A stretch of 64,000 nt of DNA from Terriglobia bacterium (GCA_963790465.1 CAWBOP010000029.1:10503-74502); one strand, 5' to 3'; shown: positions 19,740 to 63,994, counted from the stretch's first letter. The notes: generated from the sequence alone by a model not told the origin. Translations and numbers: made by a program.

Positions 19740-21133
19740 CCCAGGGCAGACCCGGCCCGAGACGGCCTGCCGCGCGGCTCGCGGCGGTAGCGGCGTGCCT
19801 GGCGCTGGCGTTCGGCGTTCCGGCGCTCGCCGACGTTTTCCGCATCCTGGACGAGGATCAGGAGGCCGCGCAGGCGCGCATCGACCTCGTCCAGCAGGCC
19901 CGCGTCTCCCTCGATGCCGAGTATTTCATCGTCGAGAACGACCAGGTATCGCGGGTCGGTCTCGCGCTGCTGCGCGATGCGGCCCGGCGCGGCGTGTCGG
20001 TGCGGCTGATCGTCGACGGCAGCTTCAACCGGATGTCGAAAGCGATCCAGGCGTACCTGGTGAGCCAGGGGGTCGAGATTCGGGAGTACCACCCGTTCCG
20101 GCTCACGAAACCCCGCTGGTGGACCCGCCGGCTGCACGACAAGCTCCTGGTGGCGGACGGCGCTCGGATGCTGACCGGCGGGCGCAACGTCGCGAACCCG
20201 TACTTCGGCTTCGGCGGGAGGAACTACGTCGACCGCGACGCCTTCGTCGCCGGCCGTGCGGCGGCGGACGCGCGGGCGTACTTTCACGATCTCTGGTACA
20301 GCGGGGAGGTGAGGGAAACGCGTCTCGGCGCCTTCGGCCTCTCGATCCTGTCCGCGGAGTGCGAGACGATCCCGCGGGAGGCGGAGCGGTGGCGCTGCGC
20401 CGAGAGGCGAAAGGTGGCCATCGAGGCGCACCACCGGGCGGAGCGTCTCCTGGACGAGGCGATGGTGGCGCTCCGGCTGGCGAGCTGGGTCCGCTACGAC
20501 ACCGGGACCGACTGGACCGCGGGAGAGCGCGACCTCGAGGATGTGAAATTCCTCCACGAGCCGGTGGGTCGCGCGGCGGACGCGCGGGGGATCGGCAACG
20601 AGTTGCTCGACCTGATGGGTTCCTCGTCCGCCTCGCTCACGATCGAATCCCCGTATCTCGTGCCGTCCCGGGCGTTCCTGCGCGCGCTCCGCGGCCTTCT
20701 CCGCCGCGGCGTGCACGTCAGGGTTTTGACGAACTCGCTGAACTCCACCGACAACCTCCTCGCGCAGGCCGGCTACGTCGGCCGGAAGCGGAAGCTCGTG
20801 CGGATGGGGGTGGAGATCTGGGAATTCCGCGGCCCCGAGTCCATGCACGCGAAGTCGGCGGTGATCGATGGCGAGACGGCGGTGGTGGGGACGTTCAACA
20901 TCGACCCGCGGTCCGAGTACTTGAACACCGAGCTGGCCGTGGTGGCGGTCGACACGGATCTCTCGGCCCGCCTTCGCGCGTCGATGGACGCCCACCTCTC
21001 CCGGGCGTTCCGGATCGGCAGCGACGGGAAGCCGGTCGGCGAGAGCCGAAAACACCCGGGCGTGTCGTGCCTCAAGCGCTTCAAGCTCGGCCTCCTTCGG
21101 CTGCTCGCTCCGTTCATCCAGAAGCAGCTGTGA
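19736..21133 (+). CDS. Phospholipase D family protein (ClsC/YmdC-like)
   Basis: Two HKD motifs, RRLHDKLLVADG and MHAKSAVIDG; GGRN; FNIDPRS. Confidence 0.9.
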   Translation: MTQGRPGPRRPAARLAAVAACLALAFGVPALADVFRILDEDQEAAQARIDLVQQARVSLDAEYFIVENDQVSRVGLALLRDAARRGVSVRLIVDGSFNRMSKAIQAYLVSQGVEIREYHPFRLTKPRWWTRRLHDKLLVADGARMLTGGRNVANPYFGFGGRNYVDRDAFVAGRAAADARAYFHDLWYSGEVRETRLGAFGLSILSAECETIPREAERWRCAERRKVAIEAHHRAERLLDEAMVALRLASWVRYDTGTDWTAGERDLEDVKFLHEPVGRAADARGIGNELLDLMGSSSASLTIESPYLVPSRAFLRALRGLLRRGVHVRVLTNSLNSTDNLLAQAGYVGRKRKLVRMGVEIWEFRGPESMHAKSAVIDGETAVVGTFNIDPRSEYLNTELAVVAVDTDLSARLRASMDAHLSRAFRIGSDGKPVGESRKHPGVSCLKRFKLGLLRLLAPFIQKQL

Positions 21134-21416
21134 GAGATTCCGTCATCCGGCAGCCGCGCGCGGACATCCCCCCGGGGCGCACCCCGAGCGCGAGGCTGAG
21201 CTTGGCGCTCGCGAAGTGCAGCACGGCGGCGACGAGGAGGTCGCTGCCGCGGCAAGCGCCACCTGGGTCGGCATGGCGGGAGCCCAAGGGGGCATTATTT
21301 CACCTCGAGCGGAGTGCCATGGATCTCGGCCGTCGCAGGGTCGCACTCTCTGCCGGGGCGGTCGGCGACCGGGACTCTTGCAGGATCCTCGGGCTGGAAA
21401 GGCTGGAAATCTCCTA

Positions 21417-21456
21417 TTGACTCGGGCACCTCGAGGAACGTATAAGGAAGTTATAC
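21417..21456 (+). promoter_or_regulatory. Sigma70-like promoter with palindromic operator over the -10
   Basis: TTGACT-18-TATAAG; inverted repeat GTATAA-N5-TTATAC at 21440-21456. Confidence 0.55.
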
Positions 21457-21474
21457 ACTCACGGGGTTAAGCAT

Positions 21475-21668
21475 ATGCCCCGAGGCGCTGGGTACGGTGG
21501 CGGAGCGTCCGACGCGGTTCGACGACACAACGTCGTCACGTCGAGCGGTAGTTTGCGCCTCGTTCGTCAAAGCGACATCTTCGCGTCGGCGGTGCGCGAG
21601 ATCCTCGAATCGAGCCCGCTCCGCGAGGCGGGTTCCCAGCCGCTCACCCTGTCGCAGTTCCGCCTGTC
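21475..21668 (+). pseudogene. Truncated MarR-like regulator N-terminus, in frame with the downstream ferredoxin
   Basis: IFASAVREILE...PLTLSQFRL resembles MarR helix 1-2; wHTH missing. Confidence 0.4.
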
Positions 21669-21723
21669 CCTGCCGAAAACGTCACCCGGCACACGCTCGC
21701 GCCCTCAGTCCGAAGGAGATCTC

Positions 21724-22068
21724 ATGAGACTCTGGCGAAAACCGCTCGACCTGGACCAGATCAAGATCCCGCACGGGGTGGTGCGCATCGTGGTCGACCG
21801 TTGCAAAGGGTGCGGCTTCTGCGTGGAGTACTGCCCGAAAGACGTTCTGGTGATGTCCGAGGAATTCAACCGCAAGGGGTATCACCCACCCGCGGTGGTC
21901 AAGAACGGGGAATGCGTCGCTTGCAACCTCTGCGAGATGATCTGCCCCGAGTTCGCGATCTACAGCGTGTTGCTGCCGGAAGCGGGGACGGTGGCCGCGG
22001 ACGAAGACCTGCCACGGGAAGCCGACCGGCTCGAACCCGATGAGCAGCGGAGGAGGGCGGTCTCGTGA
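21724..22068 (+). CDS. korD: 2-oxoacid:ferredoxin oxidoreductase delta subunit (2x4Fe-4S)
   Basis: CKGCGFCVEYCP, CVACNLCEMICPEFAI; AAGGAG SD. Confidence 0.88.
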   Translation: MRLWRKPLDLDQIKIPHGVVRIVVDRCKGCGFCVEYCPKDVLVMSEEFNRKGYHPPAVVKNGECVACNLCEMICPEFAIYSVLLPEAGTVAADEDLPREADRLEPDEQRRRAVS

Positions 22069-23222
22069 AAGCCGATTCGAGGGGCGTCCTGACCGGTACG
22101 CACTACCTGGACGGCGATTTTGCCTGCGGCGAGGGGGCGATGGCGGCGGGCTGCCGTTTCGTGGCCGGATACCCCATCACCCCTTCCACCGAGGTCGTCG
22201 AGCGCATCGCGCGCCGGTTCCCGATGATGGGGGGGCTCTTCGTGCAGATGGAGGACGAGATGGCCAGCATGGCGGCCGTCATCGGCGCGTCTTGGACCGG
22301 CACGAAGTCCATGACGGTGACCAGCGGTCCGGGTTTCAGCCTGATGATGGAGAACATCGGCCTGGCGGCGATGATGGAGACGCCGTGCGTGGTCGTGAAC
22401 GTCCAGCGGGGCGGCCCGTCCACGGGGCTCCCGACCATGGTGGGTCAGGCCGACATGATGCAGGCGCGCTGGGGCTCTCACGGCGACTACGAGCTCGTGG
22501 CGCTGTGCCCTCAGTCGCCGCAGGAGGCGTTCGAGCTGACGGTGGAGGCGTTCAATCTCTCCGAGCGATACAGGGTGCCCGCCCTGGTCATGATGGACGA
22601 GTGCGTCGGGCACATGACGGAGAAGGTTGTCATCCCCCCGGCCGACCGGATCGAGGTCGTGCCCCGCAAGCTCACGTCCAAGCCGACGGACGAGTTCCTG
22701 CCGTACCGGGTGAGCGGCGGGGACGTTCCGGAGTTCGCCCGGGCGGGAGACGGGTACAAGTTCCACGCGACGGGTCTGACGCACGACGAGCGCGGCTATC
22801 CGGTCATGAGCGCGGAGTTCCAGGAAATCTGCGTGCGCCGCCTGGTGGACAAGATCCGGCAGAACGCCGACCGGATCGTGCGCTTCGAAGAAGAAGGAAC
22901 GGACGGCGCGGACGTGGTCGTGGTGGCGTACGGGATCACCTCCCGTATTGCCCGCATGGCGGTCGAGCTGGCGCGAAAGAAGGGGGCTAAGGTCGGGATG
23001 CTGCGGCTGGTCGTGGTCTGGCCGTTCCCCGAGAAGCGAATCCGCGAGATCGCCGGCAGGGTCAAGGCCTTCGTGGTTCCGGAGATCAACTACGGCCAGA
23101 TCGTGCTGGAGGTGGAGCGTTGCGCGGCCGGACGCGCCGCCGCGATTCTCGTCCCCCACGGCGGCGGGGGCGTCCACGATCCCAAGGACATCTGCGAGAC
23201 GATCATGGGGGTGATCCGATGA
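22065..23222 (+). CDS. korA: 2-oxoacid:ferredoxin oxidoreductase alpha subunit
   Basis: GYPITPS, QMEDE, TSGPGFSLM, QRGGPSTGLPT. Confidence 0.93.
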   Translation: MKADSRGVLTGTHYLDGDFACGEGAMAAGCRFVAGYPITPSTEVVERIARRFPMMGGLFVQMEDEMASMAAVIGASWTGTKSMTVTSGPGFSLMMENIGLAAMMETPCVVVNVQRGGPSTGLPTMVGQADMMQARWGSHGDYELVALCPQSPQEAFELTVEAFNLSERYRVPALVMMDECVGHMTEKVVIPPADRIEVVPRKLTSKPTDEFLPYRVSGGDVPEFARAGDGYKFHATGLTHDERGYPVMSAEFQEICVRRLVDKIRQNADRIVRFEEEGTDGADVVVVAYGITSRIARMAVELARKKGAKVGMLRLVVVWPFPEKRIREIAGRVKAFVVPEINYGQIVLEVERCAAGRAAAILVPHGGGGVHDPKDICETIMGVIR

Positions 23223-24115
23223 GCTCCCTTCTCGAACGAGCCGAGGTTTCGCCGGAAGAGCATCCGATCGCTCCCTTCATCCGGATGGATCGGATGCCTC
23301 ACATCTGGTGCCCGACGTGTGGCATCGGCACGGTCGTCAAGTGCTACGCGACCGCACTCCAAGAAACCGGCGTCGACCTGAACAAGGCGGCGATCGTGTC
23401 CGGGATCGGGTGTACGGGCCGGGTGGCGGGTTACATGAAGCTCGACGGGTTCCACGCCACGCACGGCAGGGCGATCCCGTTCGCGACAGGGCTGAAGCTG
23501 GGACGGCCGGAGTTGCTCGTGACCGTCTTTTCCGGGGACGGTGACCTGGTGGGGATCGGCGGCAACCACTTCATCCACGCCGCCCGGCGCAACATGGACC
23601 TCCTGGTCATCCTCGTGAACAACTTCATCTACGGGATGACCGGCGGGCAGAACGCGCCCACGACTCCGCCGACCGCGAAGACCTCGACGATGCCCTTCGG
23701 GAATTTCGAGCGCGCCTTCAATCTCCCCCACCTCGCCGCGAGCTGCGGGGCCACCTACGTGGCGCGGTGGACCTGTCTGCACGTCCGGAGGCTCACGAAG
23801 TCGATCTCCGAGGCGCTTCAGCGCAAGGGGTTCCGGTTCATCGAGGTGATCACGCCGTGCTCCACGCTGTACGCGCGCCTCAACAAGCTGGGAACCGGCC
23901 TGAGCCTGATGCGGTTCTACCACGACAACGCTGAGATCCGCCACGGTGCCGATACCCGGGAGCTGGGCATCGGATACCAGGATCGCGTGGTCTGCGGCAA
24001 GTTCGTCGACGAGGAGCGCCCGACCTACCTCGACATGATGCACGACTACTACCGAAAAGTCCTGGGCGACAAGTACGTGCCGATGCCTCCGGAAGGAGGG
24101 ATGATCCATGGATAG
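23219..24115 (+). CDS. korB: 2-oxoacid:ferredoxin oxidoreductase beta subunit (TPP)
   Basis: WCPTCG, SGIGC, HGRA, GDGD, NNFIYGMTGGQ. Confidence 0.93.
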   Translation: MSSLLERAEVSPEEHPIAPFIRMDRMPHIWCPTCGIGTVVKCYATALQETGVDLNKAAIVSGIGCTGRVAGYMKLDGFHATHGRAIPFATGLKLGRPELLVTVFSGDGDLVGIGGNHFIHAARRNMDLLVILVNNFIYGMTGGQNAPTTPPTAKTSTMPFGNFERAFNLPHLAASCGATYVARWTCLHVRRLTKSISEALQRKGFRFIEVITPCSTLYARLNKLGTGLSLMRFYHDNAEIRHGADTRELGIGYQDRVVCGKFVDEERPTYLDMMHDYYRKVLGDKYVPMPPEGGMIHG

Positions 24116-24701
24116 GAAAGAAATCCGGGTCACGGGCTACGGTGGCCAGGGCGTGGTTCTCCTGAGTTATGTGATCGGCCGCGCCTGCGCGGTGCACGCC
24201 GGCATGCACGCCACGATGATCCAGAGCTTCGGTCCGGAGGCGCGCGGATCGGCATGCAGTGCGACGCTCGTGGTCTCGGACAGCGAGGTGCTCTACCCGT
24301 ACATCGCGCGTCCCGACATCTTCGTGGTCATGTCCGGCGAAGGGTACGAGAAGTACGCCGACGAGCTCAAGGACGGCGGCGTCCTGATCTACGAGAAGGA
24401 CCTGGTCCGACCGACCGTCAAAACGGGGCAGCGGGCCCACGGGATCCCCTCCACGCGGATCGCGGAGTCTCTCGGCCGCTCCATGGTTCAGAACATCGTG
24501 ATGCTGGGCTTCTTCTCAGCGATCACGCGTATCGTCTCCCTCGACCAGATCCGGGAGGCGGTCAAGGTATCGGTGCCGGCGGGAACCGAGGAGCTGAACG
24601 TCAAGGCCTTCGACGCCGGCTGGGCCCATTTCGAGGCGCCGGACGCAGAAGATTCGGCGGCCAGGACCGAGACGGTGGCCGCCACCTCGGGACCGCGGTG
24701 A
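24108..24701 (+). CDS. korC: 2-oxoacid:ferredoxin oxidoreductase gamma subunit
   Basis: [21 protein letters not shown]. Confidence 0.9.
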
Positions 24702-24733
24702 AATCCGACACAACTTTTCGGAGGCGCAGGAGC

Positions 24734-27700
24734 ATGGACGATTCATCGGCGCGAGACGGTGGGGGGCGGGGCATCGGCACGGAGAAGAGAGCGCTGGTCG
24801 TCGGCGGAGGCATCGCCGGGATCCAGGCGGCCCTGGACCTCGCCAGTGCCCGCATTCGCGTGACCCTGGTGGAGAAGTCGTCTTCGCTGGGCGGCCGCAT
24901 GGCCCAGTTGGACAAGACCTTCCCCACCATGGACTGCTCGATCTGAATCCTCGGCCCCAGGGCCATGGATGCCGGTCGGCATCCACTGATCGAGGTCGTC
25001 ACGCTGGCGGAAGTCGTCGGCTGCGAAGGCGAGCCGGGGGATTTCCGGGTTCGCATCCGGAGGACCCCTCGGTACGTGCGTGAGGACCTGTGCGTGGCGT
25101 GCGGGCTGTGCGTGGATGCCTGCCCCCAGGTCGGCGGCAACGAGTTCGACGTCGGGCTCAAGGCCCGCAAGGCGATCTACCGACCGTTTCCGCAGTCGGT
25201 TCCGGCGGCTTACGTGATCGATCGGGAGGCCTGTCTCAACGACCGGATCCTGGTTTGCGACCGCTGCTCGAGGGTGTGCGACGTCGGCGCCATCGATTTC
25301 GACATGACGCCCCGCGAGACGGTCGTCCGGGCGGGCGCCATTCTGGTCGCCGTGGGCTTCGAGGAATTCGACGCCCGGAAACTCGGCCACTACGGCTACG
25401 GTAGGCTCCCCGACGTCGTCACCAGTCTCGAATTCGAGAGGATGCTCAACGCCTCCGGGGTGACGCAGGGCCACGTCGTGCGGCCATCCGACAGGAAGAC
25501 CCCGAAGCGGATCGTGTTCATCCAGTGCGTGGGCGCCCGGGGGGAGGGCGGCCGCCCGTACTGCAGCCGCTTCTGCTGCATGAACGCGGTGAAGGACTCC
25601 ATGCTGGTGCGGCAGCACGATCCCGAGGTCGAGGACGTGACCATCCTCTACACCGACCTTCGCGCCTTCGGGAAGGGGTTCGACGATTTCGTGAAACGCG
25701 CCATGGACGAGAAGAGCGCCGAGTTCATCCGCGGCCGCCCCGCGAAGGTCGAGCGCGCCGCGGATGGGAACTCGCTGGAAGTCCTGGTCGAGGACACGCT
25801 GGCGCATCGCCAGCGCCGCATCGGCGCCGACCTCGTCGTGCTGTCCGTCGCCGCGTCGCCGAACGTCGGCGCGACGACGTTGGCCCGCACGCTTGGGATC
25901 GCCACCGACCGCTACGGCTTCGTCGCCCGCCGGGACCCCGCGGTTTCGGCGGTGGAGACCACGCGGGAGGGCATATTCGCCTGCGGCAGCGCGGTCGGCC
26001 CCCAGGTGATCCCGGACTGCGTCGCGCAGGCCTCGGCGGCGGCGGCCCGGGCCCAGCTTTTTTTCACCGGAGACCGAGTCGAGGAGCATGCGAGGCCCGT
26101 TCCGCCCCTCGACACTACCGGTCCGCCCCGGGTGGGCGTCCTCGTCTGCCGTTGCGGACTCAACATCGCCGGGGTTCTCGATGTCGAGGATCTCACGCGC
26201 TACGCCTCCTCCCTTCGGGGTGTCGTCGCCGCGGAGAACCAGCTGTTTGCCTGCTCGGCCGGGGGCCAAAACTCCCTCGTCGATCTCGTCCGGGACCACG
26301 GGCTCAACCGCCTCGTGATCGCCGCGTGCACGCCGCGGACCCACGAGCCCGTCTTCCGAGAGACCTGCGCGCGGATCGGCTTCAATCCCTACCTCCTCGA
26401 GATGGCCAACATCCGGGACCAGTGCGCGTGGGTCCACGCGAGGCACCCGCTCGCAGCCCAGGAAAAGGCGCGAACGCTGATCCGTATGGCCATCGCGCGG
26501 GCCCGCCACCTCGAGCCGCTCCACGAAGGCGAGTCGCCGATGACCCGGTCGGCGCTGGTCGTCGGCGGAGGGATCGCGGGGATCCAGGCTGCGACCGACC
26601 TCGCGGTCCAGGGGATCCCGGTGACCCTGGTCGAGAAGGAAAGTCGGCTCGGAGGCCGGCTCCGTGAGCCGAGCCTGAAGCACCTCTATCCCAACATGCG
26701 ACCGGCAGCCGAGGTTCTGGAGCAGAAGATCGCGCGTCTCGGGGAGAGCGGAGCCCGTGTTCTGCTGGAGACCGAGGTGGAGAACATCTCGGGTTTCGTG
26801 GGGTGCTTCGAGGCAACGCTCAAGGGGCGCTCCAGGGAGATCCTGCCCGTCGGGACCATCATTCTCGCGGTCGGCGCGGAGCTTTTCGACCCCCGGGGCG
26901 CCTACCGCTACGGCGAGCTTGAGAACGTGCTGACCAGCGAGGAGTTGGAGCGCGGGTTCTTCGAGGCCGGCGACGGACGGGTCGTGCGCGGCGAGCAGCC
27001 GGACAGTGCCGCGTTCATTCTGTGCGTCGGCTCCCGCGACCCGGACGGGTTCACCGGGTGCTCACGGTACTGTTGTCCGACGGCGATCAAGCAGGCCATT
27101 CAGCTCAGCCGGCGGGGGATCGATACCACGATCTTCTACCGCGACATCCGGACGATCTCGACGGGGGCGGAGGAGATGTACCGCGAGGCTCGAGAGTCGG
27201 GAGTGCTCTTCGTCCGGATCCCGCCGGGACGGAAACCCGAGGTCCTGGGCGAGGAACGGGCGCGGGCTATCCACTGCTTCGACGATCTGCTGGGGCGGGA
27301 GTTGGAAGTGCCGACGGACCTCGTGGTGCTCAGCGTCGGCATGAGACCGCGGCAGCCGGAGACGCAGCGGTTCCACGACATGCTCAAGGCCAGCCTCGGG
27401 CTCGACGGGTTCTTCCTCGAGCGTCATCCCGAGCTGGCGCCGGTGGAGACCGCGGTGGAGGGGTTGTTCCTCGCCGGAACGGTCCAGGGCCCCAAGGACA
27501 TCGTCGACTCCGTCGCCCAGGCCTCCGCTGCCGCGGCGAAGGCCTCGGTCTTCCTAGCCCACGACAAGGTGAGGCTCGATCCCGCGGTGGCTGCGGTGGA
27601 CGAGGCGAGATGCCGCGGGTGCGGCAGCTGCGTCGAGATCTGTCAGTTCCAGGCGCCCCGTCTCGCAGAGACCGCATCCGGCCTCTTCGCGGCGCACGTC

Positions 27701-27832
27701 AACGCGTCGCTTTGCAAGGGGTGCGGGACCTGCGCGAGCTGGTGCCCCTCGGGCGCCATCGCCTCGAGGCACTTCACCGACCGACAGGTGCACGCCATGA
27801 TCGACGCGTTCTTCGCCGAGGAGATCGCATGA
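24734..27832 (+). CDS. hdrA: Tandem (two-module) HdrA-like flavoprotein, selenoprotein with UGA at 24944-24946, ~1032 aa
   Basis: VVGGGIAG...[16 protein letters not shown] continues in frame into ORF 24965..27832; two FAD motifs, ferredoxin motifs, CSRFCC and CSRYCC. Confidence 0.9.
24966..24985 (+). promoter_or_regulatory. Bacterial SECIS-like hairpin
   Basis: TGGATGCC-GGTC-GGCATCCA, 19 nt after the in-frame UGA. Confidence 0.8.
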
Positions 27833-28308
27833 CGCGGCGCGCTTCGGAGAAGCGAGCCGCGGCGGAGCAGCCTCCCGTCGCGGCGGCCCCATGGAACCCG
27901 AGCATCGTCGTGTTTGCGTGCAACTGGTGCTCCTATGCGGGCGCGGACACCGCCGGCGTCTCCCGGATCCAGCACGAGCCGCATTTCCGCATGATCCGGG
28001 TGATGTGTTCGGGGCGCATCCAACCGGGTTTCGTGTTGCGCGCGTTCGAAAGAGGGGCCGATGGCGTGCTGGTCTCGGGGTGTCACTTCGGAGACTGCCA
28101 CTACGTGTTCGGCAACCACCGCGCGGTGGAGCAGTTCGAGAAGACGAAGAACGTCGTCCGCCTCCTGGGGCTCGAGAACGGACGGCTGCGGCTGGAGTGG
28201 ATCAGCGCGGCGGAAGGGCCCCGGTTCGCGGCGGTCATCAACGAGTTCACCGAGGTGGTGCGCAAGCTGGGCCCGAGCCCCTTCGCGGGTCATGGCAGGG
28301 CGGCGTGA
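27829..28308 (+). CDS. mvhD: MvhD-like 2Fe-2S subunit
   Basis: [35 protein letters not shown]. Confidence 0.92.
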   Translation: MTRRASEKRAAAEQPPVAAAPWNPSIVVFACNWCSYAGADTAGVSRIQHEPHFRMIRVMCSGRIQPGFVLRAFERGADGVLVSGCHFGDCHYVFGNHRAVEQFEKTKNVVRLLGLENGRLRLEWISAAEGPRFAAVINEFTEVVRKLGPSPFAGHGRAA

Positions 28309-29471
28309 GCGGGGAAGGAGCGAAGGTGATGCCGGAACTCGCCGAGGCGTCGAAGAGGACCCGGGCGTGGGCCTGCTACGATTGCGGGAAGTGCACCGCG
28401 TCCTGCCCGATCGCCCGGGCGGGCGGCGACTGCAGCCCGCGGCGAAACGTCCTTGCCATGAACCTCGGGGCGACCGGCGGGGAGCCGGCGAGCGCCAGCC
28501 TCTTCACCTGCCTCACCTGCTCACTCTGCGACCGGCGCTGCCCCGCCCAGGTCGCGTACACCGACCTCGTGCGGAGCCTCAGGGAGCACGCCTTCCGCGA
28601 AGGGGTGGAACCGGAATGCCCGCACGGCGGGGCTCTTCAGTCCGCCATGCGGATGATGGCCAGGGGGGGCACGCGCCAGGACAGAATGGGCTGGTTGGGC
28701 GGCGACCTCAAAACCCAGCCTGCGGCCGGAAAGGTGTTCTACTGGACCGGCTGCGCGATGTACTTCGACGCCTTCTTTCCCGACCTCGGCCTCTCCATCC
28801 TCGACGGTCCGCGGGCGGCCGTGCGCTCGATGAACAGGCTGGGTGTGGAGCCCGTGATCTCGCCGGCCGAGCGCTGCTGCGGGCACGATCTCCTGTGGAA
28901 CGGCGATCGCAACGCCTTCGACCTCCTGGCGAAGCACAACGTCGACCTGGTGGCGGGCAGCGGCGCCGACGTGCTTGTAACTTCGTGCGCCGAGTGCCTC
29001 CGAACGTGGAAGGCGGACTACGCGCCGCTCCTCGCGGGGAAGCCCTTGCGAATTCTCCACATCACCGAGTTCCTGCTCGAGCACTTGTCCGAGCTCGAAC
29101 TAAGATCCGACGCCGGGGGGCGGGTCACCTACCAGGACCCCTGCCGGCTCGGTCGTCACCTCGGAATCTACGATCCTCCCCGACGGCTTCTGCGGGAGTT
29201 GCCCGGGGTTGCCCTGGTGGAGATGGGGCGGACCGGCCCCGCGGCGATCTGCTGCGGCGGGGGGACCTGGTCCCACTGCGACGGCTTCGCCAAGAAGATC
29301 CAGGTGGAGCGTTTGCGCGAGGCCAAGGCGACGGGAGCGGATGTGCTGGTGACGGCGTGCCCGAAGTGCCAGATCCACTTCCGTTGCGCCATGAAGGACC
29401 CGATTCTCGGGGGGGAGATCGGCCTCAGAGTTCGCGACGTGGCCGAGCTCATCGCCGACGCGCTCGGCTAG
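28305..29471 (+). CDS. HdrD/GlpC-like Fe-S protein (2x4Fe-4S plus two CCG domains)
   Basis: [49 protein letters not shown]; start GTG 28305 or ATG 28329. Confidence 0.88.
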
Positions 29472-29511
29472 AGAGCCCAACTCGACGGGCTCGCGGAAAG
29501 GAGAACGATCG

Positions 29512-31959
29512 ATGGCTCTCAATGCGACCGCCGCCGACCTCCGCATAGGCGTTTTCGTCTGCGATTGCGGGCTGAACATCGCCGGCACCGTGGACTGCGC
29601 GGCGGTGGCCGAGTACGCGAACACGATGCCGGACGTGACCTGCGTGGTCCGGAACAAGTACACCTGCGCCGAACCGGGCCAACAGGAAATCAGGTCGGCG
29701 ATTCGCCAGCACAACCTGAACCGGGTTGTCGTCGCGTCGTGCACGCCGAGACAGCACGAGCCCACGTTCCGGCAGTGCGTGTTCGAGGCGGGCTTGAACC
29801 CGTACCTGATGGAGATGGCCAACCTGCGGGAGCACTGCTCCTGGGTCCACGCGGGCGACCGGGAGGGGGCGACGGAAAAGGCCAAGGACCTTGTCGCCTC
29901 GGCCGTCGCGCGCGCCCGCTTCCTCCAGCCCCAGGAGGAGATCACCGTGCCGGTCACGAAGGCGGTGCTGGTGATCGGCGGAGGGGTGGCGGGCATCGAG
30001 ACCGCCATCGAGCTGGCCGACGCGGGGCACAAGGTGATCCTGGTCGAGAAGGAGCCCTCCATCGGTGGGATCATGGCGCAGCTCGACAAGACCTATCCCA
30101 CGATGGACTGCTCGATATGAATCCTCGGGCCTAAGGCCATCGATGCCGGTCGGCATCGAAACATCGAGCTCCTGACGTACAGCGAAGTCGAGCAGGTTTC
30201 CGGCTTCATCGGGAATTTCAAGGCCACGATCCGCAAGAAGGCCCGATACGTCGATCCCAAGGCGTGCAACGGATGCGGCGAATGCGCGAAGGTGTGCCCC
30301 GTCGTCCGCCCGGACGAGTACCAGATGGGGCTGTCCTCACGGAAAGCCGTCTACATCCCGTTTCCCCAGGCGGTGCCCTGCTCCTACATCCTGAACATGG
30401 ACGACTGCCTCGGGAACAACCCGATCGCGTGCGGGAAGTGCGCGGAGGTGTGCGAGAAGCGCGCGATCGATTACGACGATCGCGCCGAGATTCTGACACG
30501 GGAGATCGGAGCCATCGTCGTGGCGATCGGCCTGGACGTCTACGATCCGACGGAGATGGATGAGTACGGCTACACCCGCTTCGAGAACGTCATCACGTCC
30601 ATGGAGTTCGAGCGTCTGATCTGCGCCGGCGGACCCACCGCGGGTCACTTCGTCCGCCCCAGCGACAACGTGCGCCCGAGGCGGATGGGCTTCATCCAGT
30701 GCGTCGGATCCAGGAACCCGAAGATCGGCCGGCCGTACTGCTCCAACATCTGCTGCATGAACACGGTGAAGGACACGCTGCTCCTCGCCGACCACTACCC
30801 CGACGTGGAGAACGTGGTGTTCTACCAGGACATCCGCGCATTCGGGAAATCCTTCGAGGACATGTACCAGAGGTCGAAGCAGGCCGGAACGCGCTACGTC
30901 CGGGGACTCCCGGGGGACATCGAGGAGGATCCCGGGACGAGGAACCTGGTCGTCACCGTGGAGAACACCACCACCGGAAGACTCGAGCGCCACGAGCTGG
31001 ACATGGTGGTCCTGTCGGTGGGAGTGGTGCCGCCGAAAGACCTCGCGAAGATCTCCTCGATGCTGACGCTCTCCAAGACCTCCGATGGGTTCTTCATGGA
31101 GACCCACCCGAAGCTGAAGCCGGTGGACGCGCCGACCCGTGGCATCTACTTCGCGGGATTCTGCGAGGCTCCCAAGGACATCAAGGACTCGGTCTGCCAG
31201 GCGGGCGCCGCGGCCTCCCGCGCGGGAGCCCTCCTCAACATCGGTCTAATCAAGATCGAGGCGATCACCAGTCGCATCGACGAGGTCGAGTGCAAGAAGT
31301 GCGGCCTCTGCGCCCCCATCTGCCCCTACGGGGCGATCGTCTGGAAGAAAGGCGAGGTGGCCACGGTCGTGGAGGCGGCGTGCGCGGGCTGCGGGGCGTG
31401 CGGCGCGACCTGTCAGTACGGCGCGATCACCATGCGGCACTTCACCGACGATCAGATCCTGGCGCAGGTGCACGCGATCCTCGCGGAGAGGCCGCAGGAC
31501 AAGGTCTTCGCCTTCGCCTGCAACTGGTGCTCGTACGCCGGCGGCGACATGGCGGGGATCTCCCGCGTCCAGTATCCGGCCACGAACCGCGTCGTGCGCA
31601 CGATGTGCTCCGCTCGCGTCTCGGAGGAGATGGTGGTGGAGGCATTCCGGGCCGGCGCGCCCGTGGTCCTTGTGTCGGGATGCCACTACGCGGACTGTCA
31701 CTACATCAACGCCAACCGGCAGACCGTGAAGCGCGTGCAACGTTTGTGGGACCGCTTGGAGAAGGTGGGGATCCGACCGGAACGGCTCCAGCTCGAGTGG
31801 ATCAGCGCCGCAGAGGGGCAGAAGTTCGCCAGCGTGATGCGCCGGATGGAGGAACTGAGAAAGACGGTCACCGCCGCCGAGATCGAGCACGCTCGGCAGG
31901 CATTGAAACTCAGGGCGGGCAAGGCAGCCGGCATCGCCGTGGGAGCGGCTCCGAGCTAG
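29512..31959 (+). CDS. hdrA: HdrA-MvhD fusion, selenoprotein with UGA at 30118-30120, ~815 aa
   Basis: IGVFVCDCG...IGGGVAG...[17 protein letters not shown] continues in frame into ORF 30292..31959; C-terminal FACNWCSY...GCHYADCHY. Confidence 0.9.
30140..30159 (+). promoter_or_regulatory. Bacterial SECIS-like hairpin
   Basis: TCGATGCC-GGTC-GGCATCGA, 19 nt after the in-frame UGA. Confidence 0.8.
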
Positions 31960-31976
31960 ACGATTCGGGGGATCGC

Positions 31977-32132
31977 ATGGGCACAGCCTCGGTCGAGACT
32001 TTTCGCTGCATGATGTGCGGCCACGAGTACCAGGAGCGGGTCGAGCCCGGCGAGGACAAGGAGCGCTCGTGCCCCAAATGCCGCTCGAACAGCATCCGCC
32101 ATCTCAAGAAGAAACGGTCGGAGAAGGAGTAA
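31977..32132 (+). CDS. Small zinc-ribbon/rubredoxin-like protein, 51 aa
   Basis: FRCMMCGHEY...CPKCRS; GGGGA SD; fills the gap in the operon. Confidence 0.75.
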   Translation: MGTASVETFRCMMCGHEYQERVEPGEDKERSCPKCRSNSIRHLKKKRSEKE

Positions 32133-32137
32133 AGCCG

Positions 32138-33568
32138 ATGCCAAGGACACGCTCGGCGAAGGAGGGACCGGTTCGGGTCGACTTCCGATTCCGCCGAGAG
32201 CTGGCCCGGAAGGTCGAGGGCAACCTGGCCAGCTTCTGCTACCAGTGTGGCGCATGCGTGGGGGACTGTCCCTCGACCACTTACGGCAGCGCGTTCAACC
32301 CCCGCGAGATCATGCTGAAAGTTCTCTACGGCTTGGGGGAGGAGCTGCTCGTCGAGGACTCGATCTTGTGGCAATGCTCCAACTGCTACAGCTGCCACGA
32401 GCGGTGTCCTCAGGGCGTCAAGCCGGTCGAGGTGATCGTTTCCCTCAAGAACATGCTTGCCGAGCGAGGACTGTACCCGGAGACGGTCAAAAAGGTCATC
32501 GACACCTTCGAGGCGACCGGCCGGACGACACCCTGGAGTCCCAGCGTCGATCGCCAGCGCGCAGCGTTCGGCCTGCCCCCCATGCGTCCGGTGCCGGTCG
32601 AGGAGATCCGGATGCTCCTCCAAGATCCCACGCCGGAAGCTGGGATCCTACGACCGGCCGCCCGAAACGACGGCGACGCGTTTCCCATCCATGGAGGCTC
32701 GAGGCGGTTCGCGTTCTTCCCGGGCTGCCTGATCCCGTCGAGGCACCCGTCGATGGAGTTCGCCATCCGCGAGACGCTCTCCCGGCTGAGCATCGAGATC
32801 GTGGAACTCGAGGGGGCGTCGTGCTGCCCGGATCCGATCTACTTCAAGTCGAAGGACAAGGTCTCGTGGCTCGCCGTGGCGGCCCGAAACCTGACGCTGG
32901 CCGAGGATCTGGGGCTCGATCTCTTCACCAACTGCTCCGGGTGCACCGCGACGCTGTCCGAGACGTATCACCTTCTCGACGACGACTCGCTGCGTGCCAG
33001 GGTCAATGGCCGCCTCAGGACGTGCGGCCGCGAATACTTGGGGACCAGCCGGGTCCGGCACGTCGTGACCCTCCTCCGGGACGTGGTCGGCTTCGACGCG
33101 GTTCGTGCATCGGTCGTGCGACCTCTCGAGGGCCTCAAGGTGGCGGTCCACTATGGCTGCCACCTGCTCAAGCCGAGCCGGATCATGCAGGTGGACGACC
33201 CCAACGATCCCGTCGTGCTGGAGAGGCTGGTCGCGGCACTGGGCGCTACGCCGGTCCGGCACCGCAATTGGTACCTCTGCTGCGGGAAGGCCTGCCAGTC
33301 GGAAGAGATTCCATCGAACATGATGCACGACCTGCTGAAAGCCGTGCAGGCCGAGCAGGCCGACCTCCTCTGCCTGATCTGTCCCACCTGCTTCGGCCAG
33401 TTCGACCACGGCCAGGCCAAGGTGTCGACTCGGTTCGGCGAGAACTTCAACACGCCGCCGGTGTACTTCTTTCAGCTCCTGGCGTTCGCGCAGGGCGTTC
33501 CCTACGACAAGCTCGGCTTCGAGCGACAGCGCTACAAGCCCGAGGTGCTGCGGCGTTTCGAGACCTGA
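32138..33568 (+). CDS. HdrC-HdrB fusion
   Basis: CYQCGACVGDCP, WQCSNCYSCHERCP; then FFPGC, SCCPDP, NCSGC, HYGCHLLKP, CCG, CPTCFGQFD. Confidence 0.9.
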   Translation: MPRTRSAKEGPVRVDFRFRRELARKVEGNLASFCYQCGACVGDCPSTTYGSAFNPREIMLKVLYGLGEELLVEDSILWQCSNCYSCHERCPQGVKPVEVIVSLKNMLAERGLYPETVKKVIDTFEATGRTTPWSPSVDRQRAAFGLPPMRPVPVEEIRMLLQDPTPEAGILRPAARNDGDAFPIHGGSRRFAFFPGCLIPSRHPSMEFAIRETLSRLSIEIVELEGASCCPDPIYFKSKDKVSWLAVAARNLTLAEDLGLDLFTNCSGCTATLSETYHLLDDDSLRARVNGRLRTCGREYLGTSRVRHVVTLLRDVVGFDAVRASVVRPLEGLKVAVHYGCHLLKPSRIMQVDDPNDPVVLERLVAALGATPVRHRNWYLCCGKACQSEEIPSNMMHDLLKAVQAEQADLLCLICPTCFGQFDHGQAKVSTRFGENFNTPPVYFFQLLAFAQGVPYDKLGFERQRYKPEVLRRFET

Positions 33569-33645
33569 CGGGAGCGATCGTCGGGGCAAACGCACACGCA
33601 GCTCCGATACCGGGTCCCCGGGGAATCCCGAGGCGTCGCGCCAGT

Positions 33646-34101
33646 TCAATCCAGGGGGGCCGGTCCCCCTTCCAGCGCGGTCAGGAACAACTCGTTCTCC
33701 CGTGTCTCGTGCCGGTGGAGCTCCGTGACGATCGATCGGACTTCGGCCGCGAGGGCCGTGACCGCACCGTCCGCGGCGGGCCTCGCCGCCAGCGACCCCA
33801 GGACCGCGTCCAGGCGGTCGAGATACCGACGATGGTCTCGCAGGAAGGTGACGCACTGCGCTGCTGCGTTGGGCCACGCGCGCTCGATGTCCTCGAAGAA
33901 TCCCGATCTCGTCTCCAAATCGAAGTGCGCTTCCAGGTCGGGCCTGAGGCTACCGATCCTCCGGGACAGGTCGTCGAGCCAAGCCCCGCGGGCCTCGGCC
34001 GAGGGGGTCGCCGCCGTCAGCCGTTCCAGTTCCGCGAGCTCCTTTCGAAGCTGCCTGTGCTCCTCCAGCACCTGTCGGGTCTCGTCGCCGTGGCTCGTCA
34101 T
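33646..34101 (-). CDS. Hemerythrin-like domain protein
   Basis: EEHRQL, HFDLE, DHRR, HRHETRENELF. Confidence 0.75.
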   Translation of the reverse strand: MTSHGDETRQVLEEHRQLRKELAELERLTAATPSAEARGAWLDDLSRRIGSLRPDLEAHFDLETRSGFFEDIERAWPNAAAQCVTFLRDHRRYLDRLDAVLGSLAARPAADGAVTALAAEVRSIVTELHRHETRENELFLTALEGGPAPLD

Positions 34102-34269
34102 GGTCGGGCTCCCGATGAAAACATGGCAGGCAGATTCGCGTGGCAAGGTTGGAATGCGCTTCTTCCGCCCGACGCTCCGGGCCTGACATCGCCCGCGGGT
34201 TTGCCCATCCCCCTCCCCCTGGTTTCCTACACGCTACGATACACCGCTTCGCGGCCGGCGGAGACCCCT

Positions 34270-37209
34270 TCAAAGTGCCACGAGCTCGTTCACCAGGGCA
34301 GCGGACTCCGCCATCCTGGCCTCGATGTCGGCGAACAGCTGGTGCGCCGCGTCGATGCCGTCGGGCGTGTACCCGAGAGTCCTCGCCGGCCCGTCCAGAC
34401 GGCTCCGCTCGATCTCGTCGGTGGCCGCAACGGCAACTCGATATGCCGAGCGGACCGAGACCAGGAAGTCGCTGATAGCCCCCAGGCTCTCGTACAGCGA
34501 AGCCCGTGAGGGGTCCCGCCTCGAGAGCTCGGGGAACACCTTGGCCTGCGACGAATCCCACACGCAGTGCCGCGCCTTCGCGATCGCCAGTGACAGGTCG
34601 ATCTCCCGCAGGCCGCCGGGCGTCTCTTTCAGATGGAGCATTCCCTTCGGGAGCGGATGGAACGCGCGCCGACGCTCGTCGATCTCCCGGGCGACCCTCG
34701 CCACGAACCGATCGGACCTCGCGAACACGAGAGGCCGCAGCGCTCTTGCTTCGAGCTGCTCCTCGATCCTCCGGCCGCCGACGACGATCCTCGAGCCCAG
34801 GACCTGGCAGCGATCCACGAAGACCTCGTCGTCGTCCTTCGAGAGCAACGCCACCAGTTCGTCGAACGTCGTGACGAAGCGGCGGAAGTGCTCCGCGAGA
34901 CGATACTGGGCGACGACCCCACGGCGGGCGATCTGGCGATTCATGAGCACGACCACCCGTTCGGCGAACTGCTGGTCCCCGGGATCGCTGGAGTCGATCA
35001 ATGCCAGAAGATCGTAGTCCTCGTCGTACGGCCGCCTCCGAGCGTTCCCTCCCGCGAGGAGAATTCCCAATCGCTCCCGTAGGGGAACCCACCCGCCCGC
35101 CTCGCGTGCCGCCTGGCGGAAGCAGAAGTCGAAGAGCCTGTCGAGGTAGGTCGCGGTGAGCTCGGAGAAACCCGCTCGCGCCTTGGCATCGGGCTCGCCG
35201 CGCAGGGTGCCCATCGCGATCCGCAGGAACTCGATGTCATAGAAATCTCCCAGCAGCCCTTTCTGTTCCTCCGCGTTCGGGTGCCGCTCGCTTGCCGCGA
35301 GCCGTCCGAGGGCGAGTGTCCTGAGGGTCGCATCGTCGGAGAGGGCGTCGACCGTGGCAGGATGACGCTCCGTCACCCGCGCGAGCACTCGAAGGATGTA
35401 GTGACTGCTCTGGCGGTGAACGCGGATCAGCGCCTGGAAGCTGTCCCTCGCCGCGGCGACCTCGGAATCCCCGATCGGCACGTCGCAGGCGGAGCCGAGC
35501 CGGTCGAGTCGCTCCGGCCCCAGCGTGAAGAGGAAGCGGTTCGCGAGAGCGGGGTACGAGCGAAACACCCGGGACAGCGCCCGGACGGTTTCTGGGAGCT
35601 GTGAGAGACGGGTCAGAAAGGCGTCGGAAATCTCTCCGGCGGGATCGGCCGGGCGTCCCACTCCGGAGCGTGTGGCCGCGAGGGTCAGGATTCTCAGAAA
35701 CGCGTAGGGAGCATCGCATCCCCAGTCCGCGTAAAGGAGGGCGAGGTCGCGGCGCTCGTGCTCGGACCGGCGGGCGAAGCTCCGTACGAATGCATCAAGC
35801 ATCGCCCCGTTGGGGGCGGAGAAGGCCTCGAGGAGGTCGTCATAGAACCGGACCCCCCAGAAGCCCCGCGCGGCGTCCACCAGCTTCTCCGCAAGCTCCG
35901 CCGCGAACTCCTCACGTGGAGCCGACGCCGCCCATCGCGAGAAGGGACCGTGTTCGGTGAGGTGGTGCGCGACCTCCTCCATCAGGACCGTCGCGACCGA
36001 GCGGGAGGCCTCCACCGCCTCGTGATAATGGACGAGGAGATGGCTGACCGCGTGAACCGGCCCCCAATCCCGGTAGCCGAGAGCAGCAGCGACGGCCGCG
36101 AGGTTCTCCACCGCTGCATCCCCCTCCACCGCCAGATCATCCTCCTGTGCTACCAGGAGTTGGACCGCGAGGCGGAAGGTCTCCAGGAAGATCCGCGCCT
36201 TTCTGAGGCGCGACAGCGGGCGCACGAGGTGGGGACGCCAGGAGATGAGCTCGTCGAACAGGTTCCCTTGCCGGGACGCGCCGATTCCCTCGATCGTGCT
36301 CAACGCGGTGACGAGGCCGAGGATCATGCGCAGGCCATCGTCCTTGGGGTTCACCCTGTCGCGGGGAAGCGGGCGCAGGAGGAGCGAGCGGGTCTCGCCG
36401 AGCAGGCCCCGCAGGTAGAGCTCGTGGCGTGAGTTGTCGCCTCGCGGCTCGAAGAAGTACTCCGCGGTGACCTCCTCCTGCAATTGCCGGAGAAGGTCGG
36501 GGTCCCCTGCGAGAAGCTCGGCGCGCAGGAGCTCCGTCACGACGACGCATCCGAGTTTCCCGGAGCGGAGCGCGCCTCGAAGCTCCCCGATGCCGACGCA
36601 GTAGCCGTCCGAGCCGACCTCTCCGGCGAGGTAGTTGTCGATGGGACTCGCGAACCGCAGGCACTGTGAGGCCAGTCGCCCCATGGCACGCTCCAGCTCC
36701 ACGCGATCGTCGCCTCCGACGTCGATCACCGCGACGTCGATGTCGTCCTGGTGCCCGCGCGTCCCGACGCTCAGCAACGCGAACCGCCCTGCTCCGGGCC
36801 TCATGACGGCTCTCAGGACGTGCCGGACGTACGTGGTGACCAGGAGCGAGAACTGCTCCTCGGCCCGGTTGACGAAGGCGTCATAGGATCGCAGCCGGTC
36901 CGGATCTTCCGCGAGATCGATGGCGAGCTGCTCGAGCGCTCGGGCGTTCTGGTGAAGGTATTGGACGCAGTAGTAGGTGCCGAGCAGGACCAGTTTCTCG
37001 TCCGGATCGCGGCCCGCGGCGGCGACGCGCTCGAAGTCCTCCGTCGGCGCGGGAGCGGTCCGATCAAGGTGGATGTTCGACAGCGTGCCCGCCGCCTCGA
37101 GGCGCGCCAACAGAAGCGGACCGTAACGTTCCACCGCCCGGAGATACTTGCGCGTCACGTTGCCCATCGGCCTGACGCGGCTGACGAGGCGTTGAAACGC
37201 GGGTTCCAT
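34270..37209 (-). CDS. Divergent GlnE-like tandem nucleotidyltransferase
   Basis: Two NT-like motifs (SVGTRGHQDDIDV, AGGNARRRPYDEDYDL) and HLKETPGGLREID; 979 aa. Confidence 0.6.
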   Translation of the reverse strand: MEPAFQRLVSRVRPMGNVTRKYLRAVERYGPLLLARLEAAGTLSNIHLDRTAPAPTEDFERVAAAGRDPDEKLVLLGTYYCVQYLHQNARALEQLAIDLAEDPDRLRSYDAFVNRAEEQFSLLVTTYVRHVLRAVMRPGAGRFALLSVGTRGHQDDIDVAVIDVGGDDRVELERAMGRLASQCLRFASPIDNYLAGEVGSDGYCVGIGELRGALRSGKLGCVVVTELLRAELLAGDPDLLRQLQEEVTAEYFFEPRGDNSRHELYLRGLLGETRSLLLRPLPRDRVNPKDDGLRMILGLVTALSTIEGIGASRQGNLFDELISWRPHLVRPLSRLRKARIFLETFRLAVQLLVAQEDDLAVEGDAAVENLAAVAAALGYRDWGPVHAVSHLLVHYHEAVEASRSVATVLMEEVAHHLTEHGPFSRWAASAPREEFAAELAEKLVDAARGFWGVRFYDDLLEAFSAPNGAMLDAFVRSFARRSEHERRDLALLYADWGCDAPYAFLRILTLAATRSGVGRPADPAGEISDAFLTRLSQLPETVRALSRVFRSYPALANRFLFTLGPERLDRLGSACDVPIGDSEVAAARDSFQALIRVHRQSSHYILRVLARVTERHPATVDALSDDATLRTLALGRLAASERHPNAEEQKGLLGDFYDIEFLRIAMGTLRGEPDAKARAGFSELTATYLDRLFDFCFRQAAREAGGWVPLRERLGILLAGGNARRRPYDEDYDLLALIDSSDPGDQQFAERVVVLMNRQIARRGVVAQYRLAEHFRRFVTTFDELVALLSKDDDEVFVDRCQVLGSRIVVGGRRIEEQLEARALRPLVFARSDRFVARVAREIDERRRAFHPLPKGMLHLKETPGGLREIDLSLAIAKARHCVWDSSQAKVFPELSRRDPSRASLYESLGAISDFLVSVRSAYRVAVAATDEIERSRLDGPARTLGYTPDGIDAAHQLFADIEARMAESAALVNELVAL

Positions 37210-37289: not shown

Positions 37290-37850
37290 TCACGGCGACG
37301 CGGCTTGATGGACCTCGCTTGCGAGGTCGAGCCCGAGGTGAAACGCCATGCGATTCAGATCCTCGGTGCCCTTCGGCACGCGAGCGAGGATCGCCTGCTC
37401 GGCGGCCTCCTCCGTCACCGCCTGCGAGAGGCGGACGATGAGGCCCAGCGCGACGATGTTGGCGACCACGGCCTTGCCGAGCCTCTCCCGGGCCAATCGC
37501 ACGAACGGGTAGCGGATCACCCGCCAGCTTCCCGCGGGGACCTGGGTCACGGAGTCGGAGTCCACGATCAGGACTCCTTCGGCCTTGAGCTCCGAGAGGT
37601 ACTTATTCAAGGCTTCCTGCGTCAGGGCGAGTAACAGGTCGATGTTCTCGGTCTTGGGGTAGTCGATCTCCCCGTCGGAGATGATCACGTCCGACTTGCT
37701 GGCGCCTCCTCGTGCCTCGGGGCCGTAGGACTGGCTCTGCGTGGCGTTGCGATCGTCGTAGATCGCGGCGGCCTCGGCGAGGATCTTCCCCGCCAGCACC
37801 AGTCCCTGGCCCCCTTCGCCGCTCAGCCGCAGCTCGTAGCGGAAACCCAT
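37290..37850 (-). CDS. korC: 2-oxoacid:ferredoxin oxidoreductase gamma subunit
   Basis: GEGGQG, SYGPEARGG, NIVALG. Confidence 0.92.
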   Translation of the reverse strand: MGFRYELRLSGEGGQGLVLAGKILAEAAAIYDDRNATQSQSYGPEARGGASKSDVIISDGEIDYPKTENIDLLLALTQEALNKYLSELKAEGVLIVDSDSVTQVPAGSWRVIRYPFVRLARERLGKAVVANIVALGLIVRLSQAVTEEAAEQAILARVPKGTEDLNRMAFHLGLDLASEVHQAASP

Positions 37851-63726: not shown

Positions 63727-63816
63727 TGGCGGAGAGAGTGGGATTCGAACCCACGGTACGGTTTCCCGTACACACGCTTTCCAAGCGTGCACCTTCAGCC
63801 ACTCGGTCATCTCTCC
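63727..63816 (-). tRNA. tRNA-Ser(GGA)
   Basis: Cloverleaf, anticodon loop TT-GGA-AA, long variable arm, GTTCGAATC, 3' GCCA. Confidence 0.95.
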
Positions 63817-63901
63817 GCAACGGCTCCGGCGAATCGGGCTTCGCCGCTTTGGGGCCGGCGTGTCACGACCGGCCGCCGAGACTCGACTCGTCAAAACATC
63901 C

Positions 63902-63994
63902 TGGCGGAGAGGGTGGGATTCGAACCCACGTGCCTCCTCACGGAGACAAAGCGCTTTCGAGGCGCCCCCGTTACGACCACTTCGGTACCTCTCC
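63902..63994 (-). tRNA. tRNA-Ser(CGA)
   Basis: Anticodon loop CT-CGA-AA, long variable arm, GTTCGAATC, 3' GCCA. Confidence 0.95.

Follow-up and report, generated by a model that had tools for sequence, protein, structure and literature searches.

Selenocysteine (Sec)-containing HdrA is a well-established member of the bacterial selenoproteome. In the accessible portions of the papers cited here, HdrA is counted among 25 bacterial selenoprotein families, with 16 genes, 7 of them in Syntrophobacter fumaroxidans; the same work reports that hdrA can be fused to hdrA and that operons with FrhD/MvhD and GlpC may encode several selenoproteins, and proposes transfer between archaea and Deltaproteobacteria (PMC1794560). 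Several Sec-Hdr proteins co-located with mvhD are reported from Desulfobacterium autotrophicum (PMC2702500), and a 2026 review lists HdrA as a CxxU protein under NF040770 (PMC13188914). In HdrA of M. maripaludis the residue is Sec197, beside the flavin adenine dinucleotide (FAD), and the Cys-Sec pair lies between FAD and cluster A3, its role being still open (PMC13518236). On the RNA side, the GGUC loop and the bulged U18 of the fdhF selenocysteine insertion sequence (SECIS) are functionally important (PMC4489274). Here we analyse a 64,000-nucleotide (nt) stretch of a Terriglobia bacterium genome (GCA_963790465.1, CAWBOP010000029.1:10503-74502; hereafter the window, to whose first letter unprefixed coordinates refer), which contains an hdrA-hdrA and an hdrA-mvhD fusion gene, each with an in-frame UGA followed by a SECIS-type hairpin. 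Judged from the sequence, both are very probably genuine bacterial selenoprotein genes whose UGAs encode Sec in the living organism. Since Sec-HdrA was already on record in 2006 as a bacterial selenoprotein family, the two genes add to a known family; the recoding mechanism is the standard bacterial one, and both family and mechanism are textbook.

The hdrA-hdrA gene (24734..27832, plus strand) begins with an ATG at 24734 and has its in-frame TGA at 24944..24946, while the hdrA-mvhD gene, of the HdrA2 type (29512..31959, plus strand), begins with an ATG at 29512 and has its TGA at 30118..30120. Translated with TGA as U, both frames run uninterrupted to 27832 and 31959 and yield proteins of 1032 amino acids (aa), with the proposed Sec at position 71, and 815 aa, with the proposed Sec at position 203. 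The 815-aa HdrA-MvhD protein aligns end-to-end with the solved HdrA of Methanothermococcus thermolithotrophicus (5odc_A, E = 8e-238), its C-terminal ∼120 residues (662-778) are matched by the MvhD chain 5odc_D, and the whole passes NF040770 (HdrA2) with 1132.5 bits against a curated cut-off of 1100, over profile positions 1-776 of 777. The 1032-aa protein matches 5odc_A (E = 5.6e-193) in three separate stretches, a core (14-389), an N-domain-like part (464-597) and a C-terminal part (846-1029), and is therefore a rearranged double module: translation, Pfam, NCBIfam and the 5odc_A match give an HdrA core with CxxU followed by an N-domain-like segment, then a second FAD module that has no CxxC, and a ferredoxin domain at the C-terminus. 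U71 and U203 both align with Cys197 of 5odc_A, the second Cys of the CxxC motif. A first-pass annotation made from the window alone had proposed the two TGAs with a continuing HdrA frame, full-length HdrA-type products of ∼1032 and ∼815 aa, and the second Cys of the HdrA motif as the recoded position, and translation, profile searches and structural alignment bear out each of these points. It had also noted that Sec occurs in some archaeal and deltaproteobacterial HdrA, which agrees with Sec197 of M. maripaludis and with the accessible accounts of Syntrophobacter fumaroxidans and others, and had supposed that gene callers split both genes. They do: exact-sequence lookup in a public protein collection returns four separate entries on one contig, at 24734-24943 (70 aa), 24965-27829 (955 aa), 29512-30117 (202 aa) and 30292-31956 (555 aa).

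The recoded column behaves in homologues as a Cys/Sec position. Among 42 loci from related genomes and a 401-genome phylum sample its codon is TGA in 21 and TGC in 21 and nothing else, which fits the alternation of Cys and UGA that the first-pass annotation had looked for at this column. A 191-aa query around the site finds, as its 19 best matches in the phylum sample (59-99% identity, own genome included), only proteins with one TGA, and the next-best matches after these are Cys-type. Three other genomes of the same genus have no copy of the Sec type; identity of their best matches does not exceed 47%, and these are free of stops. The selA gene is present in 22 of the 23 phylum-sample genomes with TGA-type HdrA among the matches listed, a tally that includes three genomes flagged unpublished (G088, G187 and G063), against a background of 300/401, and the exception, G288, is 69% complete. 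This co-occurrence is a weak test, because the genomes are related to each other.

Two other HdrA-like regions of the same genome should be mentioned. At G000:C13:173507-175888 an HdrA/MvhD-like region gives matches in several frames, with one or two TGAs within the pieces; no GGTC hairpin of the type described below was found in it, and the region may represent a paralogue in decay or one more recoded gene. At G000:C23:96737-101800 lies a Cys-type hdrA / hdrA / mvhD cluster with 39% identity to the 815-aa fusion, one piece of which has a TAG.

Each UGA is followed by a hairpin. In hdrA-hdrA it occupies 24966..24985 (plus strand), with stem 24966-24973 (TGGATGCC) paired to 24978-24985 (GGCATCCA) and the GGUC loop at 24974-24977; in hdrA-mvhD it occupies 30140..30159 (plus strand), with stem 30140-30147 (TCGATGCC) paired to 30152-30159 (GGCATCGA) and the GGUC loop at 30148-30151. 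Both have 8 perfect base pairs (bp) and begin exactly 19 nt past the TGA, as had been noted at first pass, so that the loop starts 27 nt after the UGA, a distance inside the 16-37 nt range that we take to be the search window of bSECISearch. The 16-nt core GATGYCGGTCGRCATC occurs at these two sites only in the whole 2.93-Mb genome. RNAfold finds both hairpins, with z-scores of –1.99 and –2.84 for 52-nt stretches; these values are modest, thus folding energy alone would not carry the case, and the argument against chance comes from conservation across homologues.

This conservation was followed in a named set of 80 metagenome-assembled genome (MAG) loci, the best relatives of the 815-aa protein in a species-level genome collection, in which TGA sites were found by sequence pattern. 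The pattern yields 135 TGA sites in 79 of the 80 loci (none in L149), and all 135 keep 6-7 of 7 stem pairs in the same register, with GGTC as the loop at 133. One pair, at 24972/24979 and 30146/30153 in the window copies, varies in a compensated manner, being C-G at 115 sites, U-A at 17 and U.G at 3, and unpaired at 0. In the U-A state an Ala-to-Val replacement is accompanied by a silent change of the Arg codon from CGG to CGA, a coupling that constraint on the protein would not call for. Four Cys paralogues from the named loci form only 3-4 of the 7 pairs. A gapless alignment of 40 TGA sites (A1, 38 distinct rows) gives a similar picture: the hairpin stands in register at 36 of the 40, 94.7% of the cells in the seven core pairs are paired, and the variable pair is C-G in 22 rows, U-A in 13 and other in 3. 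None of 500 shuffles reaches the covariation score of A1, although relatedness among sequences can by itself place an unstructured alignment above its shuffles; in slid registers the paired fraction is 23-49%. All seven pairs are found in 17/20 distinct Sec-type sites vs 0/20 Cys-type sites, with mean minimum free energies of –12.3 and –6.0 kcal/mol, respectively. The hairpin is thus conserved, backed by compensatory changes, and absent from Cys forms.

The first-pass annotation had argued that the RNA structure is selected, and the C-G/U-A pair with its U.G intermediates supports this, but not the full 8-bp extent: the eighth, basal pair is unpaired in 26 of the 38 distinct A1 rows, and the conserved stem is 6-7 bp. 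The G-C to C-G swap between the two window copies, on which that argument had leaned, is weak as covariation. It concerns the weakest of the conserved pairs (G-C in 30 A1 rows, C-G in 3, other in 5), and among named orthologues with C at this place 37 have a C.C mismatch and only 4 the compensated C-G of the second window copy. We do not claim two further RNAfold predictions as parts of the element. A small second hairpin (GGCC...GGCC), predicted in both window copies, is missing from most orthologues, and an outer helix (columns 7-10 with 48-51), although 84.9% of its cells are paired, coincides with the conserved ILG and IE codons and shows weak covariation. As a separate observation, four Sec-HdrA sites (L042, L087, L089 and L090; context ST*ILAPKMVEFGRH) lack the GGUC hairpin in register. 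One fold of this subgroup has a shifted 8-bp hairpin with an AGUU loop, and the subgroup may carry a second SECIS variant of the family.

Genes for Sec synthesis are present in the genome, a bin of 2.93 Mb in 29 contigs with 89.8% completeness and a GC content of 67.6%. It has one copy of tRNA-Sec (G000:C13:110400-110497, 98 nt), which scores 71 bits to RF01852 against a gathering score of 47 and is called SeC by ARAGORN; its anticodon is UCA, found in no other of the 47 tRNAs, and its acceptor and T stems are 8 and 5 bp, with a long variable arm. The selA gene scores 517 bits against a cut-off of 267.9, and selD 369.4 bits against 125, the latter having its own in-frame TGA in the context SCAGUASKMGP. 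A selB homologue is also present (G000:C13:60713-62558; L012:1483-3385), matching profile positions 2-133 and 139-577 of 581 in two different frames, with scores for the two pieces of 175.7 + 128.9 bits, both halves being open and well conserved. The expectation of a Sec system in the genome is thus borne out for tRNA-Sec(UCA), selA and selD, but with a frameshift in selB in this assembly. The window itself holds no sel gene and no tRNA-Sec, in line with the first-pass annotation; its sole tRNAs are two adjacent tRNA-Ser genes (GGA and CGA; 63727-63994, minus strand), whose long variable arms cause sub-threshold matches to the tRNA-Sec model. Upstream of the window, an FdhA-like fragment (G000:C29:853-1500) contains an in-frame TGA at C29:1141 in the classic ARVUHGP context. 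We do not use it as support, since it lies at a contig end, its composition differs (it looks lower in GC) and its frame is lost after about C29:1500; possibly it is what remains of a gene, or the contig end is chimeric.

It should be noted that a number of observations weigh against Sec decoding of the two genes. An Rfam scan of 20000-36000 at E ≤ 10 returned no SECIS or other credible family. The bulged U of the fdhF element is absent from both hairpins, which are perfect helices, although this feature may be specific to enterobacterial SelB, and the loop starts nine nt further from the UGA than in fdhF (27 nt vs 18 nt, according to the accessible accounts). The 1032-aa fusion stays below the NF040770 cut-off, with 1033.6 bits vs 1100 spread over 3 stretches, while still being clearly homologous to HdrA. 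The assignment of the sel genes and the window to one organism depends on the binning of the 29 contigs. Finally, selB has a +1 frameshift, an extra base at L012:1909 at a TTTT-CC junction; if it is real in this strain, Sec insertion fails and both hdrA genes end at their UGAs. We looked at the selB locus in Logan contigs of four sediment metagenome runs; no run contained more than 0.21 of the sampled words, and the contigs aligned to the locus were mostly from relatives at 90-95% identity. In run X1 a 1167-nt contig (66 differences), and in run X2 two 143-nt contigs (4-5 differences), lack exactly the base at 1909, therefore near relatives have selB in one frame; these contigs are, however, only about 94-97% identical to the locus, i.e. 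they come from relatives. Run X4 contains zero-difference pieces of the selB locus, none of which spans 1909, and no RNA run containing the locus was listed. We regard an assembly indel as the simplest reading of the extra base in this strain.

These observations give some room to the alternative that the Sec system has just been lost through a real selB frameshift and that both hdrA genes stop at the UGA as non-functional relics. The two-frame selB of this assembly, and the gap at the site in X4, the only run with identical pieces, are compatible with such decay. Yet the lesion is a single-base insertion between two open, well-conserved halves, the X1 and X2 contigs of relatives do not have exactly that base, selA, selD (itself with a UGA) and tRNA-Sec are intact, and so are both hdrA frames and both hairpins; we consider recent loss quite improbable. 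The UGAs might also be read as cysteine by a Cys-charged tRNA with a UCA anticodon and a SelB-like factor, in the manner of the selC*-type recoding system reportedly found by Mukai and co-workers. Cys would work in the protein, as the column is Cys in half of the homologues, but the sole tRNA with a UCA anticodon is shaped like a bacterial tRNA-Sec (8/5 stems, long variable arm), and a long variable arm is a Ser identity element. Moreover, selA and selD, which are needed only for selenium, are present and intact, and only one SelB-type gene stands above the EF-Tu-like matches, which makes Cys recoding very improbable. The chance that both TGAs are sequencing or assembly errors, or ordinary nonsense mutations, seems negligible to us: the genome is a metagenome bin with one probable indel error elsewhere, in selB, but the same codon falls in the same column of two paralogues of this genome, and TGA recurs at the 135 sites of 79/80 independent named assemblies and in 18 other phylum-sample genomes, always with a downstream hairpin. 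That TGA has become a sense codon throughout the genome (as in code 4 or 25), for which nothing speaks except the two open frames, has a probability close to nil, since the genome is GC-rich (67.6%) and TGA is the stop of 26 of the 39 coding-like open reading frames (ORFs) of the window, hdrA-hdrA itself included, so there is no global reassignment.

If, as we favour, the two UGAs encode Sec, insertion would follow the standard bacterial route. With the UGA at 24944 or 30118 in the A site of the ribosome, the hairpin located 19-20 nt further along the mRNA, with its 6-8 bp stem and GGUC apical loop, would be bound by the C-terminal domain of SelB. SelB.GTP would bring Sec-tRNASec(UCA), the product of SerRS, SelA and SelD, Sec would be inserted, and translation would go on to give the 1032-aa HdrA-HdrA (Sec71) and the 815-aa HdrA-MvhD (Sec203). 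In both proteins Sec would stand for the second Cys of the CxxC motif adjoining the bifurcating FAD of HdrA. We infer Sec insertion, SelB binding and the physiological reaction of the products from these genomic data.

Both genes belong to a run of redox genes on the plus strand. Directly upstream of hdrA-hdrA are the four subunits of a 2-oxoacid:ferredoxin oxidoreductase (OFOR; 21475..24701), delta at 21475-22068, alpha at 22065-23222, beta at about 23120-24115 and gamma at 24108-24701, of which the alpha subunit scores 561.6 bits to NF006412, above the cut-off of 411. Between the two fusions lie a stand-alone mvhD (FlpD) gene (27829..28308, 159 aa; PF02662, 173 bits), which has Cys (CNWC) and not Sec, and a gene whose profile matches identify it as an HdrD/GlpC/TfrB-like Fe-S protein with two CCG domains (28332..29471, 379 aa); no in-frame TGA was found in either. 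An hdrC-hdrB fusion (32015..33568) follows, with the HdrC part at residues 74-192 and the HdrB part at 232-507; it scores 264 bits to TIGR03288 and 98 bits to TIGR03290, both under their cut-offs, and its true start may be further downstream. Genes past 33568 are on the opposite strand. The two Sec proteins, together with MvhD, the HdrD-like protein and HdrCB, probably form flavin-based electron-bifurcating complexes.

The terminal TGA of hdrA-hdrA shares bases with the ATG of mvhD in an ATGA overlap at 27829-27832, which suggests translational coupling of the two genes. This TGA is a true stop, only 2.9 kb after the recoded one and on the same mRNA. A second OFOR gamma-subunit gene lies at 37290-37850 on the minus strand, and there is therefore a further 2-oxoacid oxidoreductase locus nearby.

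Less ordinary is that this OFOR-Hdr cluster recurs as a whole, with 66-87% identity, in records whose labels name many phyla. For the 815-aa protein, the 80 best relatives, at 67-86% identity in the best segment, are labelled as 12 phyla (Acidobacteriota 23, Planctomycetota 20, Gemmatimonadota 7, Eiseniibacteriota 5, Zixiibacteriota 3, and others), and three closed chromosomes are among them. The order OFOR gamma, hdrA-hdrA, mvhD, hdrD-like, hdrA-mvhD, hdrCB is kept in most of the 80 loci: mvhD was found in 80, the HdrD-like gene in 73, hdrA-hdrA in 65, hdrCB in 64 and OFOR gamma in 56, many of the misses being contig ends. In a FastTree phylogeny of 79 proteins the phylum labels interleave, and for Acidobacteriota, as well as for Planctomycetota, the starred branches require no fewer than 4 changes; the window protein adjoins a record labelled Acidobacteria, with support 92, on a branch that is not starred. 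Such interleaving is not proof of transfer, because labels follow submitters and bins can hold foreign contigs. However, the patchy pattern, with 12 interleaved phylum labels and genomes of the own genus that have no Sec copy, does resemble horizontal transfer. In the accessible literature we found nothing specific on this cluster in Acidobacteriota or Planctomycetota, nor on Hdr-OFOR linkage of this kind. We therefore put forward only tentatively, as a possibility that we hold to be less than even, that the ∼12-kb cluster, from the four OFOR genes to hdrCB, is an uncharacterised, horizontally mobile, selenium-dependent electron-bifurcation module. It might have spread, with its in-ORF SECIS hairpins, among sediment bacteria of at least 12 phylum labels, linking 2-oxoacid oxidation and ferredoxin to disulfide reduction, and it would work only in recipients already able to decode Sec.

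At the level of annotation, two large redox enzymes are at present filed as four fragments of 70, 955, 202 and 555 aa, and the same mis-splitting is likely in many of the orthologous MAG loci. As a consequence, two intact HdrA-type flavoproteins, and with them a need for selenium, go missing when the metabolism of these sediment bacteria is reconstructed. Joining the fragments is a useful annotation repair of two genes. The results extend the carriers of Sec-HdrA to bacteria whose closest relatives bear Acidobacteriota, Planctomycetota and Gemmatimonadota labels. They also provide 135 naturally occurring sites of a single SECIS type, a large alignment with its C-G / U.G / U-A series from which a covariance model could be built.

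How the locus compares with described systems can be summarised from the RNA element outwards. With the fdhF SECIS of E. coli and Salmonella, as far as it is covered in the accessible accounts, the window hairpins have in common their place inside the ORF directly after the UGA and the GGUC apical loop (PMC4489274), the latter having already been recognised in the first-pass annotation; they differ in a stem of 7-8 bp that is uninterrupted and without the bulged U. Sec-HdrA of Methanococcales (M. maripaludis; Cys form 5odc_A of M. thermolithotrophicus) has the same fold, the same domain order and the same CxxU/CxxC column next to FAD. Archaeal SECIS elements, however, lie in untranslated regions (PMC4489274), whereas the window element is a bacterial-type hairpin inside the ORF. 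Unlike the Methanococcales protein, HdrA of the window has either MvhD or a second HdrA module as its fusion partner, and it has OFOR genes adjoining, with no hydrogenase or formylmethanofuran dehydrogenase genes beside it.

The bacterial Sec-HdrA operons of Deltaproteobacteria and Clostridia (Syntrophobacter fumaroxidans, Syntrophus aciditrophicus, Desulfobacterium autotrophicum) resemble the window, in their accessible descriptions, in that hdrA-hdrA fusions occur, mvhD and GlpC/HdrD-like genes lie close by, and several Sec-Hdr genes can stand in one operon. There FrhD/MvhD and GlpC frequently contain Sec as well, and hydrogenase genes come next, whereas in the window mvhD and the HdrD-like gene use Cys and the neighbour is OFOR. 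The architecture of the second gene is that of HdrA2B2C2 of Methanosarcina acetivorans, in which HdrA2 is an HdrA-MvhD fusion, presumably with Cys at the Sec site: the 815-aa fusion passes NF040770 over its full length and is followed by hdrC and hdrB homologues, with the difference that in the window hdrC and hdrB are themselves fused and the host is bacterial.

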